Origin: Candidatus Acetothermia bacterium | GTDB taxonomy: Bacteria > Bipolaricaulota > Bipolaricaulia > RBG-16-55-9 > DRXL01 | Direction: 5' to 3' | Length of the DNA stretch: 64,000 nt | Assembly: GCA_016179105.1 (NCBI GenBank) | Contig: JACOSB010000054.1 | Location: 84 to 64,083, forward strand | Shown: in pieces, positions 10,326-24,360 of the stretch | Layout: every line of letters begins with the position of its first letter | Position numbering within the stretch: position 1 is the stretch's first letter | Position numbers and translations under genes: made by a program | The notes under the pieces: generated by a model | What the model was told of the DNA's origin: nothing | The model's database searches: none | What the model saw: only the letters and a program-made list of their open reading frames with translations

Positions 10326-11348
10326 ATGCGCTGGTACACTCGCCCCGCCCTCGTCATCGCTAGTTGCACTAGTGTTTTATTGTTCAATCCTGCAACACAA
10401 TCTTCTCTAAGCCAGATCGAGCCCATCCAGCCCGACCCGGCCAATGCCCCCAAAATTATCTCCATCGAGTTCCCAGCACAGATCGTCCCCGACGGCAAAG
10501 CCGTCCAGGGCAAAGTGAACTTCGAAGCCCCCAAAGCCGACATCTATCAAGCCGAGTTCAAAATTTTGAAAGCGATCGACCCGAAAGATGGCAGCGACTC
10601 GCGCAACCGCTCCGAACTCCAAGACATTACGTACGACCCTCGCATCAAAGGCCAGTCCAAGGGCAGTTTCCCGTTTACGATAAAAACTAAAATCGAGCAG
10701 ATCGTGACGATCGCGATCACGCTCAGCGGCGAGAGCTCGGGCCGTGGGCCATCCAAAGAGTTTTCGTTCACGGCTCTGATCCCGAGCAGCGTGGGCACGC
10801 TCAAGTGGAGCATTCAAATCGGGACTTCGACGGCCTCGTCTCCCGCGATCGGCTCCGACGGAACGATCTATATTGGCTCGGACGACAACAAACTCTACGC
10901 AATCAATCCCAACAACAACGTCAAATGGACATTCAGAACCAGCGACGACGTCGACTCTTCGCCCGCGATCGGCTCCGATGATGTGATTTACATCGGCTCG
11001 AACGACGGGAAAGTCTATGCGCTTACGCCCGATGGGCGTCAGAAGTGGGCCTTCCCGACGCAAGATCGTGTACAGTCCACGGCTGTCATTGGCAACGACG
11101 GGACGATCTATGTTGGCTCGCAAGACCGGAGAATTTATGCGCTCAACCCCGAGGGGAGCTTAAAAATCACCTTCCCGCTCTCGGGCTCGATCGGAAATTC
11201 TTCCCCCACGATCGGGAGCGACGGGACGGTCTACATCGGCACCGTCGACGGGAAAATTCATGCGATTCTCAGCGTGAGCCAGAATATCGCGAGCTCGCCC
11301 TGGCCGATGTTCTTGAACAATCCAAGACATACGGGATCGGCGAGATAA
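10326..11348 (+). CDS. Secreted protein with PQQ-like beta-propeller repeats
   Basis: N-terminal signal-like segment; four SSPAIGSDGTIYIGS-type repeats; terminal SPWPMF...N..HTG. Confidence 0.85.
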   Translation: MRWYTRPALVIASCTSVLLFNPATQSSLSQIEPIQPDPANAPKIISIEFPAQIVPDGKAVQGKVNFEAPKADIYQAEFKILKAIDPKDGSDSRNRSELQDITYDPRIKGQSKGSFPFTIKTKIEQIVTIAITLSGESSGRGPSKEFSFTALIPSSVGTLKWSIQIGTSTASSPAIGSDGTIYIGSDDNKLYAINPNNNVKWTFRTSDDVDSSPAIGSDDVIYIGSNDGKVYALTPDGRQKWAFPTQDRVQSTAVIGNDGTIYVGSQDRRIYALNPEGSLKITFPLSGSIGNSSPTIGSDGTVYIGTVDGKIHAILSVSQNIASSPWPMFLNNPRHTGSAR

Positions 11349-11407
11349 ACCGCCAAGACGCCAAGGACACAAAGACTTTTCTTGGCGCTCTTGGCGCCTT
11401 GGCGGTT
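11348..11407. repeat. (CGCCAAG)n palindrome, empty copy 1
   Basis: AACCGCCAAGACGCCAAGGACACAAAG-ACTTTT-CTTGGCGCTCTTGGCGCCTTGGCGGTT. Confidence 0.9.
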
Positions 11408-11430
11408 CAATTCTGGTAAAATACTAACGC

Positions 11431-11840
11431 AAGAGGGGTAAAGGGCCGCAATCGTCTGAAAAGATGATTGAGGAAAGTCCGGACTCCATAGGGCCAGTCG
11501 CTCAACGAGACCCGGTGCACTTGTCGGTCAAGTTGAGAGGGAGTGATCCCTGGGCAGGCCACAGAAACCAGACCGCCAACGGCTCTTCTCGAAGAGCGCG
11601 GGCAAGGGTGAAAGGGTGGGGTAAGAGCCCACCGCCAACTCGGGTGACCGGGTTGTGGCTGGCAATCCTCCGGCGGGAGCAAGGCCAAATAGGCAGGCGT
11701 GCGTAGGGACAGTTCACGAACTGCCCCTACCAACGGGCGGCCCGTCCAACGCTCGCAAGAGCGACGTCTGCGGGTAGGCCGCATAGATGGATGGCCCTTA
11801 CGGAAATTTTTTCCGACAGAATCCGGCTTACTCCCCTCTT
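11431..11840 (+). ncRNA. rnpB: RNase P RNA, type A-like
   Basis: GAGGAAAGTCCGG and ACAGAATCCGGCTTA (P4); GGGTGAAAGGGTGGGGTAAGAGCCCACC; GAGCAAGGCCAAATAGG; P1 AAGAGGGG/CCCCTCTT. Confidence 0.95.
11703..11730. repeat. GTAG-type REP-like palindrome inside rnpB
   Basis: GTAGGGACAGTTCACGAACTGCCCCTAC matches the dispersed GTAGGGGCG...CGCCCCTAC family. Confidence 0.8.
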
Positions 11841-11857
11841 CGTTTTGTTTATTCGGA

Positions 11858-11926
11858 AACCGCCAAGGCGCCAAGAGCGCCAAGAAAAGTCTTTGAATTT
11901 CTTTTTGTCCTTGGCGCCTTGGCGGT
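11858..11926. repeat. (CGCCAAG)n palindrome, empty copy 2 (inverted relative to copy 1)
   Basis: First 38 nt are the exact reverse complement of the last 38 nt of copy 1, followed by a 10-nt loop insertion and TGTCCTTGGCGCCTTGGCGGT. Confidence 0.9.
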
Positions 11927-11934
11927 CAATTTTT

Positions 11935-12321
11935 ATGGCACAAACAAAAAAATTTTCGCTCGCGCGGTGGGTCTGGGGTGCGCTCTGGGTCGCGTATGCT
12001 GTGCTTATCTTTTATCTTTCGAGCCAAGCTTTACCAGATGAAGAATCTTTGTTGAAAAAGATTCCCTTCGGTGACAAAGGCACCCACGCGGGCGAGTATT
12101 TTATCTTCGGCTTGCTCACGCTCTTGACGTTTCGACCACGCACTGGGTCAAGGTGGGTCTTCGGTCTACTCATAGCTCTCGGCTATGCTGCTTCTGACGA
12201 GATTCATCAAGCATTTGTTCCCACGCGCGATCCCAGTTTTTTTGATTGGACTGCTGATGCTGTCGGGATTTTGTCGAGTGCACTAGTGTATATTCTCTAT
12301 CCGAAAAATTTGAATCGCTGA
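11935..12321 (+). CDS. VanZ family membrane protein
   Basis: IFYLSSQ, DKGTHAGEY, YAASDEIHQAFVPTR, DWTAD. Start moved to ATG 11935 because the upstream in-frame region is rnpB and repeat. Confidence 0.88.
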   Translation: MAQTKKFSLARWVWGALWVAYAVLIFYLSSQALPDEESLLKKIPFGDKGTHAGEYFIFGLLTLLTFRPRTGSRWVFGLLIALGYAASDEIHQAFVPTRDPSFFDWTADAVGILSSALVYILYPKNLNR

Positions 12322-12323
12322 AG

Positions 12324-12392
12324 CCGCGGAGCAGCACGGAAAACACGGAATGAAGGCAAGTCGTTTTCAGTGACTTCCGTGATTCTATGTGG
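12324..12392. repeat. (CACGGAA)n imperfect palindrome
   Basis: CCGCGGA-CACGGAA-CACGGAA ... TTCAGTG-TTCCGTG-TTCTATGTGG. Confidence 0.6.
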
Positions 12393-12438
12393 AACTCCTC
12401 TCGCTTCGTGTTATAATCTGAGCGTTGGTCATTGACAT

Positions 12439-12802
12439 GGGGGTGCACCGGTTTCGACGGGGGTGCGGCAGGGAGGCTGCAGGCCGAGTTCTCCGTACAC
12501 TCGCTAATCAGACGGAAAGGCATATAAATGCCAACAACTTTGCTGTTGCTGCTCCTTCCCTGAACTAAGCGAAGGAGCATGTTCTGGGTAGCGTTGGGCT
12601 CGTAGCGCTGCGCAGAACACCGACTATACGGGCCTACCTCACGATCGGCCGCGGGCCGTGGGGGAATTCTTAAAGGCGGCTAGGGTCGGCTGATCTTGTC
12701 CGACGGGAGCGACCGATCTGAACTTTAAAGCATCGGACTAAGCCTGTAGATGCCAAACGAAAGCACCTTCGGACGCGGGTTCGATTCCCGCCACCTCCAC
12801 CA
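12439..12802 (+). ncRNA. ssrA: tmRNA
   Basis: 5' GGGGGTG...TTCGAC; 3' GCGGGTTCGATTCCCGCCACCTCCACCA; resume context ATAAAT-GCC; tag frame 12530-12568; TGTTATAAT upstream at about 12409-12417. Confidence 0.95.
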
Positions 12803-12815
12803 CCGAGGACATCTT

Positions 12816-13220
12816 ATGAACCGCCAAGACGCCAAGATAGAACCAAGGTTTGAAATTGATGAGTGGGCCAGATTGGTTATTGGCGCTGCCATCGAGGTGC
12901 ACAAGCATTTAGGACCTGGCTATCTGGAAAGTGTTTATGAAGAAGCACTGGCTATGGAGTTTAATTTGAGATCCGTACCCTTCGAACGACAAAAGCCAAT
13001 AAATGTGACTTATAAAGGACAGCCTGTAGGCGAAAGCCGTCTTGATTTTTTGGTTGATGGATGTCTTATTGTAGAACTGAAAGCGGTAGAAGCTTTTGCT
13101 CCTGTGCATCAAGCTCAAGTCATTTCATACCTAAAAGCTATGAATCTTCAACTCGGTTTGCTCATTAACTTTAATGTCCCTATTCTCAAAGATGGCATTA
13201 AGAGAGTGGTGTTAACATGA
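12816..13220 (+). CDS. GxxExxY protein (PD-(D/E)XK-like nuclease family)
   Basis: GAAIEVHKHLGPGYLESVYEEAL, RLDFLV...IVELKAV, QVISYLK, GLLINF. ATG 12816 after GAGGA. Confidence 0.92.
   Translation: MNRQDAKIEPRFEIDEWARLVIGAAIEVHKHLGPGYLESVYEEALAMEFNLRSVPFERQKPINVTYKGQPVGESRLDFLVDGCLIVELKAVEAFAPVHQAQVISYLKAMNLQLGLLINFNVPILKDGIKRVVLT
12819..12847 (+). repeat. (CGCCAAG)n left arm, encoding the N-terminus of GxxExxY
   Basis: AACCGCCAAGACGCCAAG is identical to the start of copy 1 and encodes NRQDAK. Confidence 0.88.
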
Positions 13221-14545
13221 ATAAAAAATCTTGGCATCCTTGGCGCCTTGGCGGTTATATGATGTTCGGCGTCCTTGGCGCCTTGACGGTTAGCTTAATG
13301 ATCGTTGGGCTGAGTGGGCCAGTATTTGCCCAACAATTGGGACTGGTCAAGCTTGAGGCAACGATCAACCCCGTGACCAAAGACTTCATCGTTCGCGTGA
13401 TCGACGAAGCGAATCGCGACGGCGTTGTCGCGCTGGTGATCCAACTCGACACGCCGGGCGGGTTGCTCGATTCCACCAAAAATATCATCGAAAAGTTTTA
13501 CGAGTCGAAAATCCCGATCGTCGTCTGGGTTGGACCATCCGGCTCACGCGCGGCGTCGGCGGGTTCGCTCATCACCCTTGCTTCTGATATCGCCGCGATG
13601 GCCAGCTCAACTTCGATCGGCGCGGCTCACCCCGTAGGCCTCGGTGGACAAGCTCCCGACAAAGATGACCCCATGACGAAAAAAATAGAAAACTTTGCCT
13701 CGGCTGAAGCCCGTAGCATCGCTGAGAAGCGCGGCCGCCCGGTCGATATTGCCGAAAAATTTGTCCGCGAAAGTCTCTCGCTCACCTCGACCGAAGCGCT
13801 CAACCAAAAAGTCATCGATCTGCTGGCTGACAACTTGGGTGAACTCGCCAAGAAACTAAATGGTTTCAAACTCAAAGACGGCCGCACGCTCACGATCACT
13901 AATTTTAACTACAAAGAGTACACGATGACCTGGAAAGACCAGTTGATGAACTATCTGGCTGACCCGAACATCGTCTACTTCCTGATGTTGATCGGACTTT
14001 ATGGGTTGATCGCGGAAGTTTTTTCGCCCGGACATGGCGTCGGTATTGCGGGCATCATCTGTCTCTTGCTCGCGTTTTTGGGGTTGCAAATCTTGCCCGT
14101 GAATATCGTCGGCATCGTCATGATCTTGGTCGGCGCGGGCATGATGGTCTTGGATATTTTTGCTCAGACCCACTTGGCATTGACAGCGGGAGGTGCCATC
14201 GCTTTGGTCTTAGGCTCGCTCTTCTTGTTCAATTTTGACGAATTTTCTTCACCGGCCTTTGAATTGCCTTGGACCACGATCCTCGTCACCGTCGGGGCAA
14301 TCACCGCGCTCTTCGCTTTTATGATCACGAAAGGCTTGCTCATCCAGCGCAAGAAAGTGACGACGGGCATCGAGGGCATGGTCGGCGCGATTGGCCAAGC
14401 TCGGGATGATTTAGCTCCTGAGGGCATGGTTTTCGTCCAGGGCGAATACTGGAAAGCGCTCTCACAAGAAGGCTCCATTCGCTCAGGAGAAGAGATTACG
14501 GTCGAGTCGATGCGCGACGGAAAGCTCCTCGTGCGCAAGCGTTGA
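13217..14545 (+). CDS. nfeD: NfeD, membrane-bound ClpP-class serine protease
   Basis: LDTPGG, RAASAG, IGAAHPV, transmembrane region, C-terminal OB domain (GMVFVQGEYWKA). Confidence 0.92.
   Translation: MNKKSWHPWRLGGYMMFGVLGALTVSLMIVGLSGPVFAQQLGLVKLEATINPVTKDFIVRVIDEANRDGVVALVIQLDTPGGLLDSTKNIIEKFYESKIPIVVWVGPSGSRAASAGSLITLASDIAAMASSTSIGAAHPVGLGGQAPDKDDPMTKKIENFASAEARSIAEKRGRPVDIAEKFVRESLSLTSTEALNQKVIDLLADNLGELAKKLNGFKLKDGRTLTITNFNYKEYTMTWKDQLMNYLADPNIVYFLMLIGLYGLIAEVFSPGHGVGIAGIICLLLAFLGLQILPVNIVGIVMILVGAGMMVLDIFAQTHLALTAGGAIALVLGSLFLFNFDEFSSPAFELPWTTILVTVGAITALFAFMITKGLLIQRKKVTTGIEGMVGAIGQARDDLAPEGMVFVQGEYWKALSQEGSIRSGEEITVESMRDGKLLVRKR
13230..13291 (-). repeat. Two (CTTGGCG)n right arms after GxxExxY, within the nfeD 5' end
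   Basis: CTTGGCATCCTTGGCGCCTTGGCGGTT (13230-13256) and TTCGGCGTCCTTGGCGCCTTGACGGTT (13265-13291). Confidence 0.88.
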
Positions 14546-14567
14546 GGAGTTGCAGAAAGGGGTATAC

Positions 14568-15119
14568 ATGGTCGTCAATCCTCAGATTAAGCTGAGTTAC
14601 GAAGATTATCAGAATTTGCCCGAGTCGGAGACGAAACGCTATGAGCTCTTGGAGGGAGAGTTGGTGATGGTCCCAGCACCCAATTGGTTTCATCAATCGA
14701 TCGCGCGGGTACTTTTCAAATTCCTGGATAACTTCGTAGGAAAGAACAGTCTCGGGGAGGTTCGCTTTGCCCCGCTGGATGTGGTCCTCTCAGACGAGAT
14801 TGTCGTCCAACCGGACATCATTTACATCTCCAAGCAACGCGCGAAGATCATCCATCAAGAGGAGGTTCGCGGAGCTCCGGATCTCGTGGTCGAAATCCTC
14901 TCGCTGGCCACGGCTAAGCGAGACCGCACCACGAAGAAGACGCTCTATGCCCGCTACGGCGTTACGGAGTACTGGCTGGTCGACCCTGAGACCAACACTG
15001 TGGAAGTGCTTAAGCTGACCGCCCGTGGTTACCGGAGAGCTGGAGTCTACGGTGAAAAGGAGACGCTGCGTTCCCCGCTTTTGCCGGGGCTGGAAATTCC
15101 TCTAAGCAAGGTCTTTTGA
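14568..15119 (+). CDS. Uma2 family endonuclease
   Basis: YEDY..LPESETKRYELLEGELVMVPAP, QPDI, APDLVVEILS, EYWLVDP. Confidence 0.92.
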   Translation: MVVNPQIKLSYEDYQNLPESETKRYELLEGELVMVPAPNWFHQSIARVLFKFLDNFVGKNSLGEVRFAPLDVVLSDEIVVQPDIIYISKQRAKIIHQEEVRGAPDLVVEILSLATAKRDRTTKKTLYARYGVTEYWLVDPETNTVEVLKLTARGYRRAGVYGEKETLRSPLLPGLEIPLSKVF

Positions 15120-24321: not shown

Positions 24322-24333
24322 AGGGATTAGTGA

Positions 24334-24360
24334 AACCGCCAAGAGCGCCAAGAAAAAAGT
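24334..24360 (+). repeat. Solitary (CGCCAAG)n arm
   Basis: AACCGCCAAGAGCGCCAAGAAAAAAGT resembles 11858-11890. Confidence 0.75.

Follow-up and report, generated by a model that had tools for sequence, protein, structure and literature searches.

A GxxExxY gene bracketed by inverted heptamer-unit arms next to tmRNA: a candidate REPIN/RAYT-like system with a restriction-fold nuclease

How does a small gene of a nuclease-like family come to lie in the loop of a palindrome that occurs many times in the same genome without it? This question is raised by the stretch of DNA analysed here (the window), 64,000 nucleotides of contig JACOSB010000054.1 from a Candidatus Acetothermia bacterium. Between the tmRNA gene and nfeD, the window carries a gene of the GxxExxY family (PF13366), which is enclosed by inverted arms built of CGCCAAG units. 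A reading of the window made from its letters (the sequence-only reading) had proposed that GxxExxY recognises and disseminates these palindromes, in the manner of repetitive extragenic palindromic (REP) elements. The host genome (G000) is a metagenome assembly of 3.7 Mb in 166 contigs, and the window is its contig C51. The tmRNA and RNase P RNA genes were located by ARAGORN and Rfam, and proteins by Pfam and NCBIfam profiles. We find that the gene and its arms are an inserted unit, that such arms accompany GxxExxY genes throughout the family, that arm type matches gene type and that internal-deletion derivatives exist. Whether the nuclease spreads the arms has, in our view, about even odds.

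The element between tmRNA and nfeD

The element and its immediate context comprise the following features.

12439-12802, + strand: tmRNA gene (ARAGORN and Rfam); context, outside the element
12803-12818, + strand: spacer with GAGGA (12805-12809) and ATG; in relatives it aligns to the tmRNA-nfeD spacer plus nfeD start codon
12816-13220, + strand: GxxExxY gene, 134 amino acids, with PF13366 and TIGR04256 profile matches
12819-12845, + strand: left arm of the filled copy, first 18 nt exact, third unit degenerate; codes for residues 2-10 of the GxxExxY protein
13230-13256, - strand: right arm of the filled copy, one mismatch to the 27-nt arm; read in frame by an open reading frame (ORF) starting at 13217
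13265-13291, - strand: third arm-like sequence, three mismatches, within the signal-peptide coding region of nfeD (FGVLGALTV)

The ATG of the GxxExxY gene (12816-12818) lies 13 nt beyond the CCA end of tmRNA. The left arm (AACCGCCAAG-A-CGCCAAG..., from 12819) starts with AACC immediately 3′ of this ATG and is read as NRQDAK, and the right arm starts at 13230, 9 nt 3′ of the stop codon (13218-13220). Direct reading thereby confirmed the position just past the tmRNA CCA and the enclosure of the gene as they had been described from the letters. Positions 12819-13256 are one inserted unit, a GxxExxY gene inside inverted arms that each consist of an AACC terminus and three CGCCAAG units.

The insertion becomes visible in relatives from the host family. 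None of 14 loci carries arms or a GxxExxY gene between tmRNA and nfeD, and in 7 of the 14 relatives nfeD starts 4-14 nt 3′ of the tmRNA CCA. The remaining loci contain GTAG-type hairpins (two), an assembly gap (one) or intervening sequence (four). Because tmRNA is directly followed by nfeD in relatives, the arms and the gene are an insertion at the nfeD start codon; this comparison of filled and empty sites had been suggested in the sequence-only reading, and its outcome speaks for a genuine association of gene and repeat. The G000 spacer (CCGAGGACATCTT-ATG) can be aligned with the spacer and nfeD start of a relative (e.g. L220: CCA + CCGAGATCTTTCT + ATG), which places the AACC...GGTT unit exactly behind the former nfeD start codon. 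The unit thus entered the G000 lineage directly behind the nfeD start codon and just 3′ of the tmRNA gene. Judging from the sequence, the nuclease gene appears to have taken over the start signals that once served nfeD. nfeD itself appears to have been re-started through the insertion, either at ATG 13217, which overlaps the nuclease stop (ATGA) and takes the right arm in frame (MNKKSWHPWRLGG...), or at ATG 13259. The arm-like sequence at 13265-13291 may be an ancestral target that resembled an arm, or a converted sequence.

A second series of filled and empty sites was found downstream of clpP in the sister genus. One of these sites has no arm and two have GAATCA[CT]GGACAC alone. A solo hairpin retains the sequence just 5′ of the gene start and looks like an internal-deletion derivative. 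Further members of the series are a complete element, another complete one in which the clpP end is duplicated, and a truncated gene. Internal-deletion derivatives are further represented by L103, L006 and a tandem partial copy adjoining L097. Both reconstructed empty sites carry arm-unit-like sequence, GAATCA[CT]GGACAC at clpP and CTTGGCTTGG-type codons in the nfeD signal peptide, which is suggestive of arm-directed insertion, though not proof of it. A search for empty sites in Microcoleus found the gene locus orthologous in all five other genomes and the region of a gene-less hairpin insufficiently syntenic, these genomes being too diverged.

Assembly contigs from runs X2-X5 were compared with positions 11300-13400. 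Contigs break at the arms, and the gene, right arm and nfeD are covered by contigs in all four runs. An empty tmRNA-nfeD junction was seen in none of the contigs of these runs, which is uninformative either way.

The window protein matches PF13366 (PDDEXK_3; E 8.8e-43, 145.8 bits with a cut-off of 22) and TIGR04256 (GxxExxY; E 2e-44, 150.6 bits with a cut-off of 35), PF13366 being its only Pfam match, and the family identity given in the sequence-only reading was upheld. The name-giving motif is G35-Y-L-E38-S-V-Y41, in which G35, E38 and Y41 are invariant in 39 sequences. D77, E87, K89, Q101 and Y105 are invariant or nearly so in these sequences, D77 being invariant and E87 and K89 conserved in at least 90%. 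D77, E87 and K89 correspond to the catalytic D...(D/E)xK motif on the core beta strands of PD-(D/E)XK nucleases, and nuclease activity is predicted. The AlphaFold2 model (predicted local distance difference test score, pLDDT, 92) shows a restriction-endonuclease-like alpha/beta fold, with the arm-coded residues 1-6 disordered and outside the fold (pLDDT <50). Comparison by VIA-align gave Z scores of 8.1 for the BpuSI nuclease domain, 7.9 for Cas4 SSO0001, 7.6 for BglII and 6.6 for Hjc, and the best Foldseek matches were lambda exonuclease and Cas4 (E about 5e-3). A profile search of solved-structure sequences returned no match at E ≤0.01. These scores are middling, and among the structures compared no one closest PD-(D/E)XK family stands out. 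PADLOC reported weak Cas4 and Cas4b matches alone, over residues 67-114, and the protein is not a known defence family. By profile search, the PF13366/GxxExxY family comprises 39,223 clusters at 50% identity. Tandem two-domain GxxExxY proteins of 250-295 amino acids (P0001-P0012 and others) are among its best-scoring members.

Other insertions were observed at both sites in relatives. GTAG-tagged GC-rich hairpins occupy the tmRNA-nfeD spacer in L221 (G003) and L223 (G004). In L222 (G001) and L225 (G012), the 3′ T-arm of tmRNA is interrupted by ~0.7 kb of intervening sequence, which is degenerate in L227 (G007) and L228 (G010). The intervening sequence of the sister-genus tmRNA codes for a LAGLIDADG_3 protein (E 6e-6) and was assigned to no intron family by Rfam; behind it come the rest of the tmRNA 3′ end and then nfeD. 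Downstream of clpP, where sister genomes have the GxxExxY element, L100 (G012) carries ~650 nt of inserted DNA that appears to be coding on the minus strand; this insert includes a duplicated sequence resembling the target and one right arm of the CACGGAA type.

Arms around GxxExxY genes and arms without a gene

The association of gene and arms was assessed by the best ungapped inverted repeat between the upstream and downstream flanks of a gene, with a threshold score of at least 14. A first sample of 80 loci was retrieved with the window protein (55-71% identity) from Chloroflexi, Cyanobacteria, Verrucomicrobia, Acidobacteria, Planctomycetes, Burkholderiales, Myxococcota, Bacteroidetes and others, at least nine phylum-level groups. 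The threshold was reached in 78 of the 80 loci, compared with 20 of 80 in a reversed-flank control, and the median score was 27 versus 11.5. Among neighbouring ORFs of the same loci, 6 of 218 scored at least 14 and none at least 20, whereas 67 of the 80 GxxExxY genes scored at least 20. No locus was retrieved via the arm-encoded peptide of the search protein. It counts against these figures that relatedness is common among the loci, cyanobacteria accounting for 54 of the 80 with many orthologues among them, so that the sample counts overstate independence; the non-cyanobacterial loci reach the threshold in 25 of 26 cases. The arms belong to the window family, AACCGCCAAG... or the variants AACCGCGAAG... 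and AACCGCAGAG..., and the ATG directly adjoins the arm (AACC) in roughly half of the 80 loci.

Other branches of the family gave similar results with different arm sequences. The second GxxExxY protein of G000 was compared with metagenome contigs, yielding 47 loci, 43 with sufficient flank. The threshold was reached in 32 of 43 (control 0 of 43), and the arms have another sequence (e.g. TGTCTGAACC-ATGATTT units) in the same architecture. A third sample contained one paralogue per genome from 40 genomes of an acidobacterial class (41-55% identity; 39 usable), of which 34 were bracketed, compared with 8 of 39 controls. Approximately 6 of these 34 loci, and likewise L007, show the inverse topology, in which the arm termini face the gene and the gene lies outside the hairpins. 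Further GxxExxY genes in relatives of the host family were bracketed in 4 of 5 cases. Over the three samples the same architecture, with arms of 3-4 heptamer-like units, was observed in 144 of 162 loci, complete genomes included. The termini recorded for GxxExxY arms are AACC, GAATC or TGTCTGAACC. The gene-arm association is family-wide, and the flank check set by the sequence-only reading thus gave far more inverted heptamer-unit arms at GxxExxY genes than at neighbouring ORFs. The gene and its arms are a single co-inherited, insertable unit.

In L019 and L090 (Brasilonema) and in L061 (Microcoleus), both arms carry the same extra insert, of ~44 nt and ~27 nt, respectively, at mirror-image positions. 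Such mirror-image inserts point to arm-to-arm copying or to twin targeted insertions.

Arms without a gene are present in the window itself.

11348-11407, no strand: gene-less palindrome 1 of the CGCCAAG family, 60 nt; left arm 11348-11374, loop 11375-11380, right arm 11381-11407
11430-11845, + strand: RNase P RNA gene (Rfam)
11858-11927, no strand: gene-less palindrome 2 of the CGCCAAG family, 70 nt; left arm 11858-11884, right arm 11901-11927
24333-24360, + strand: half copy, one arm of two units with no partner (genome scan)

The window was scanned with the 18-nt pattern AACCGCCAAGNCGCCAAG, allowing up to two mismatches. Seven matches were obtained, at 11348(+), 11390(-), 11858(+), 11910(-), 12819(+), 13239(-) and 13274(-), compared with 0.01 expected; none of 100 shuffles reached seven. 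The empty palindromes reported from the letters at 11348 and 11858 were thus recovered, as was the half copy reported at 24334. In palindrome 1, the left arm has two exact units and one degenerate unit and the right arm three exact units. It ends 22 nt 5′ of the RNase P RNA gene, and palindrome 2 begins 13 nt 3′ of this gene, which is therefore flanked by both empty palindromes, a detail absent from the sequence-only reading. As single-stranded DNA, the two palindromes fold with -20.7 kcal/mol (z -7.05) and -26.0 kcal/mol (z -6.5), respectively. A consensus scan of 11200-13500 called no terminator at the arms.

Genome-wide, 97 arms with up to five mismatches to the 27-nt arm were found in G000, 38 of them exact, and none in the reversed genome; the pattern used across genomes counts 89. 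Eleven tight hairpins are formed among the CGCCAAG arm pairs, and most arms stand alone, pair up with an arm built of a different unit or precede a GC hairpin of the GTAG type. The arms are intergenic, with 20 of 152 within long ORFs versus 86% of the genome in ORFs. The CGCCAAG arms cluster at the gene, 7 of 89 lying within 2 kb (0.1 expected). For a second family, GAATCACGGAA-NN-CACGGAA, 35 copies were counted when one mismatch was allowed and 63 when two were, and the further unit types tested in G000 are essentially absent. A profile search found exactly two PF13366 genes in G000, the window gene with CGCCAAG arms and a gene on C53 between CACGGAA palindromes. Since each gene is flanked by one of them, the two abundant arm families of G000 are those of its two GxxExxY genes.

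Three arm patterns were counted in five other genomes, for which controls with the patterns written backwards gave 0-2. Counts are in the order CGCCAAG / CGCGAAG / CGCAGAG.

Blastocatellia G045: 112 / 0 / 6; gene arms CGCCAAG
Planctomycete G041: 50 / 1 / 42; gene arms CGCCAAG
Brasilonema G044: 32 / 4 / 25; gene arms CGCCAAG
Microcoleus G043: 4 / 121 / 2; gene arms CGCGAAG
Rivularia G042: 0 / 0 / 46; gene arms CGCAGAG

Gene-less arms of the gene's own type are abundant in all six genomes compared, G000 included (32-121 copies), in line with the matching of arm type and empty repeats that had been put forward for checking. Two genomes, G041 and G044, have nearly as many arms of a second type, CGCAGAG; G041 has a paralogue with CGCAGAG-like arms, and in G044 one PF13366 gene alone was found. 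The counted genomes have 1-4 PF13366 genes each, every paralogue with its own arms, and similar paralogues of an acidobacterium and a planctomycete share CACAGAT arms (AACCACAGATG). After removal of the arm-encoded columns, a tree of the protein core required 20 changes of arm label, compared with 41-54 in 300 shuffles. The expected agreement of arm sequence with protein phylogeny was thus observed, in a result that host relatedness inflates.

For CGCCAAG, 89 arms were counted in G000 and none in any of 40 relatives. In the acidobacterial class of G045, 7 of 121 genomes are arm-rich (at least 18 arms), and a close homologue (at least 57% identity) is present in 5 of these 7 and in 3 of the 114 arm-poor genomes. 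Gene-less cognate arms accumulate where the gene is present or, in the sister genus, was probably present formerly.

Some further observations concern the hairpins of G000. Hybrid pairs (e.g. C111:4124, C87:23844, C153:1347) consist of a (CGCCAAG)3 arm followed by a non-complementary (CTCTGCG)n arm, often after GTCTRA, and are unable to form a stem. In G000, 114 GC-rich hairpins with a GTAG tag (GTAGGGGC...GCCCCTAC) were counted, many of them nested between two heptamer-unit arms. One full Y1 transposase gene (PF01797) is present at C128:5166-5531; it was rejected as mobiliser of the arms, its flanks holding different hairpins of its own and no heptamer arms. Hairpins were also inspected for strand asymmetry, as conserved mismatches or wobbles at the spacers; the spacers are purine in both arms, with no consistent left/right difference. 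Within 60 nt of tRNA or tmRNA genes lie 4 of 152 arms, compared with 0.38 for random positions, an enrichment that was not relied upon since the random-position null ignores the intergenic placement of arms.

A possible mechanism and its rivals

The reading that we favour is a REPIN/RAYT-like system (REP doublets forming hairpins and their REP-associated tyrosine transposases) with a PD-(D/E)XK nuclease, and we regard it as about equally probable to be right or wrong. By analogy, the ~90 gene-less CGCCAAG arms and hairpins would be non-autonomous relatives of the filled copy, as REPINs are to RAYT or miniature inverted-repeat transposable elements (MITEs) to an autonomous element, a relationship for which we see an even chance. 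The nuclease would bind to the repeated units and so recognise its own arm type, and would cut at or near arms or arm-like sequence, probably as hairpin or cruciform. Through host break repair or replication, the break might then receive a copy of the arm pair and, in rare cases, of the gene. Binding, cleavage and the role in spreading are what we infer in this scheme. A wider proposal is more doubtful and is made tentatively: the GxxExxY family may provide the enzymes that mobilise or maintain a so far overlooked superfamily of palindromic repeats, built of heptamer units and present in many bacterial phyla, which would then amount to a new class of transposable elements. If this is true, the only protein of the element would be a minimal restriction-fold (RecB/Cas4-like) nuclease that uses host repair and not HUH, DDE, serine or tyrosine chemistry, and the element would be able to insert in frame at gene starts and beside stable-RNA genes.

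Several observations weigh against a nuclease that spreads its arms. CACGGAA arms occur in 17 of 17 host-family relatives (4-65 each) and in essentially none of 23 genomes outside the family; PF13366 was found in only 3 of these 17 relatives, one copy being truncated, and not in the other 14. Arms therefore persist, and possibly spread, without the gene. Equal abundance of the repeats in genomes without GxxExxY had been named in the sequence-only reading as evidence against its own proposal; such a pattern is seen in part, for CACGGAA. In the acidobacterial class, the arm-rich genomes G053 and G139 have no close homologue, their arms being a AAACGCCAAG variant, and three genomes with a close homologue have 0-1 arms. 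Closely related cyanobacterial proteins can have different units (L067 CGCGAAG and L074 CGCAGAG, sisters with support 95), so unit specificity is not simply encoded in the protein. The gene lies at an orthologous locus in six Microcoleus/Tychonema genomes, which shows that the gene copy itself rarely moves and is vertically stable. No target-site duplication was established, with a possible ACGGA repeat at the clpP site and none evident at the G000 hairpins. To our knowledge, PD-(D/E)XK hydrolases form no covalent DNA intermediate, so that a cut-and-paste or copy mechanism would need host functions. Finally, genes of the 23S_rRNA_IVP family, a four-helix bundle and not a nuclease, are bracketed similarly, and nesting in repeat arms is thus not exclusive to the nuclease. 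One such gene lies near a GxxExxY locus on an Anaerolineaceae contig (L029:219-569), inside inverted TAGCT-type unit arms, and is one of two control ORFs with a high inverted-repeat score. Another, in G000 (C85:7496-7810, - strand), is located between tRNA-Ile and tRNA-Ala, an rRNA-operon spacer context, within the inverted repeat GTGTTGCAGTGCTGC...; its arm has only 7 genome copies versus 89 for CGCCAAG.

Persistence of CACGGAA arms in the 14 relatives without a found gene would also be accounted for if the palindromes spread by other means (template switching, a Y1/RAYT-type enzyme or a host function) and GxxExxY were a homing-like parasite, which cuts arm-like sites and is copied in by repair as a passenger. 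PD-(D/E)XK homing endonucleases exist, e.g. I-Ssp6803I. The ratio of 1-4 genes to 32-121 own-type arms per genome, the arm-like sequence at both reconstructed insertion sites in relatives without the element, and the presence in G000 of a Y1 transposase and 114 GTAG-type hairpins are likewise consistent with it. We consider this account unlikely, however. CGCCAAG arms occur in none of the 40 relatives and abound in G000 alone, which also has the cognate gene, and the closest proteins across phyla keep the same arm sequence; arms and gene co-occur and travel together across phyla, which argues that they arrive together. Moreover, the empty tmRNA-nfeD site has no hairpin to invade, the G000 Y1 gene has its own, different flanking hairpins, and G000 contains one filled copy per arm family despite ~11 tight CGCCAAG hairpins as targets.

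A role at the RNA level seems somewhat less probable still. Here the element would be an expression cassette whose arm stem is cut by RNase III to free the ORF from a host transcript, terminates or insulates transcription, or locks the start codon, around a nuclease that acts as, say, a toxin or in defence; gene-less hairpins would be decayed cassettes, retained as harmless or useful 3′ hairpins and comparable to rRNA intervening sequences. The ATG abutting the arm in about half of the 80 loci fits this idea, since start codon and 3′ untranslated region would pair. So do the position directly 3′ of the strongly transcribed tmRNA gene, the gene-less palindromes around the RNase P RNA gene, the arms near tRNA and tmRNA genes (4 of 152 within 60 nt versus 0.38 at random positions), the intergenic placement of arms, the internal-deletion derivatives and the G000 23S_rRNA_IVP gene inside its inverted repeat between tRNA-Ile and tRNA-Ala. 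A stem, however, needs complementarity and not a particular sequence, yet arm sequence is kept across phyla, and non-complementary hybrid pairs and lone arms are common in G000. The near-identity and uniform short loops of the ~90 gene-less arms (38 exact) are not easily explained by ~45 independent full insertions with later deletion. In addition, ~6 of the 34 bracketed acidobacterial loci place the gene outside the hairpins, and no terminator-like T tract was called at the window arms. That the arms are a simple repeat with a coincidentally nested gene, or an assembly artefact, has a negligible probability and is refuted by the controls. The 166-contig metagenome assembly of the host is all that could be cited for it, whereas the seven window matches versus 0.01 expected, the absence of arms from the reversed genome, the architecture in 144 of 162 loci from unrelated assemblies (complete genomes included) and the gene, right arm and nfeD on contigs of four independent runs all contradict it.

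The closest analogy of the GxxExxY element among known systems is REPIN/RAYT, with MITE-like decay. The two systems share a low-copy gene (~130-180 amino acids) between two inverted repeat copies. Gene-less copies, which are intergenic, form hairpins and often occur as inverted doublets, number tens to hundreds in both; each paralogue has its own repeat family, and vertical inheritance of the gene is frequent. The enzyme, however, has a PD-(D/E)XK fold (PF13366) where RAYT is HUH/Y1 (PF01797), and the arms combine an AACC or GAATC terminus with 3-4 heptamer units where REP is a single palindrome tagged with GTAG/CGTC. Because its enzyme is a restriction-fold hydrolase and its arms are unit repeats, the element is not a member of REPIN/RAYT. 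Of the REP-like reading made from the letters, the gene-repeat association has thus stood; the HUH Y1 enzyme and the GTAG/CGTC tag of REP systems are both absent from the GxxExxY element. Further differences are the frequent location of the gene in the loop, with the ATG abutting the arm, and an arm sequence common to several phyla, which therefore points to horizontal transfer of the unit. With MITEs and autonomous insertion sequences, the element shares terminal inverted repeats common to a rare coding element and many short non-coding copies, and internal-deletion derivatives. It differs in lacking a DDE, serine or tyrosine transposase and a demonstrated target-site duplication, in its internally repetitive arms and in a coding copy that is usually single and stable.

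Rickettsia palindromic elements can insert in frame into coding regions and in or next to tmRNA, and are not known to have an associated enzyme gene. The right arm of the window, read in frame as the new NfeD N-terminus, resembles them in this respect; we know of no sequence relation between these elements and GxxExxY arms. Homing endonuclease genes are similar in that GxxExxY is a small free-standing putative nuclease gene with insertion sites that resemble the flanking arms, and a LAGLIDADG ORF is found at the neighbouring tmRNA site in sister genomes. In contrast to them, GxxExxY is located neither in an intron or intein nor at a conserved single-copy site, and is tied to a multicopy repeat. 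rRNA intervening sequences with 23S_rRNA_IVP also place a small ORF in a long-stem loop beside or inside stable-RNA genes, and ORF-containing and ORF-less versions both exist according to a recent study (10.1101/2024.02.27.582315). The GxxExxY element differs in lying outside an RNA gene, between tmRNA and nfeD and not in rRNA, in its highly dispersed arms (89 versus 7 for the IVP arm) and in its nuclease cargo.

In a 2012 PD-(D/E)XK survey, PF13366 is listed as 'Unknown', with multiple transfers. No paper that links GxxExxY/PF13366 with repeats was found in the openly accessible literature; a search with arm 10-mers gave chance matches in unrelated papers only, and one for small dispersed cyanobacterial repeats gave nothing relevant. 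Database curators may have noted the family context informally. Cognate dispersed palindromes as a consistent genomic partner suggest a concrete, testable function for this very large family. A large class of orphan palindromic repeats, known from cyanobacteria, Chloroflexi, Acidobacteria, Planctomycetes, Verrucomicrobia and other groups, thereby gains GxxExxY as a candidate enzyme. Should the nuclease drive the repeats, it would be a second, mechanistically unrelated solution to the REPIN/RAYT lifestyle and a source of small sequence- or structure-specific nucleases whose specificity is readable from the genome. For annotation, it matters that translated arms give proteins spurious ends (NRQDAK... 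at the N-terminus, ...LGVLAV at the C-terminus) and that arms break short-read assemblies.

Surroundings of the element in the window

On the + strand, the genes and palindromes between 11000 and 13600 follow in the order beta-propeller gene, palindrome 1, RNase P RNA, palindrome 2, VanZ-like gene, degenerate palindrome, tmRNA, GxxExxY gene and nfeD. The features that remain to be located are the following.

end at 11348, + strand: beta-propeller gene (direct reading)
11938-12321, + strand: VanZ-like gene (profile search)
12331-12385, no strand: GAATCACGGAA-type palindrome (second arm family), degenerate, in the spacer from the VanZ-like gene to tmRNA; converted from C51:12414-12433 (+) and 12449-12468 (-)

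The degenerate palindrome folds weakly (z -1.7), and its arm family is that of the other GxxExxY gene of G000. With it included, all intergenic spacers from 11348 to 13260 contain one of the two arm families. In the groundwater runs X2 and X3, contigs carry 118 other letters at 12284-12406 in place of this CACGGAA-palindrome stretch, a strain-level variant. Directly 3′ of nfeD, at 14550-15119, lies a Uma2/DUF820 gene (PF05685, E 2.9e-38) with a putative restriction-endonuclease fold, a member of a further small family of the PD-(D/E)XK-like kind.

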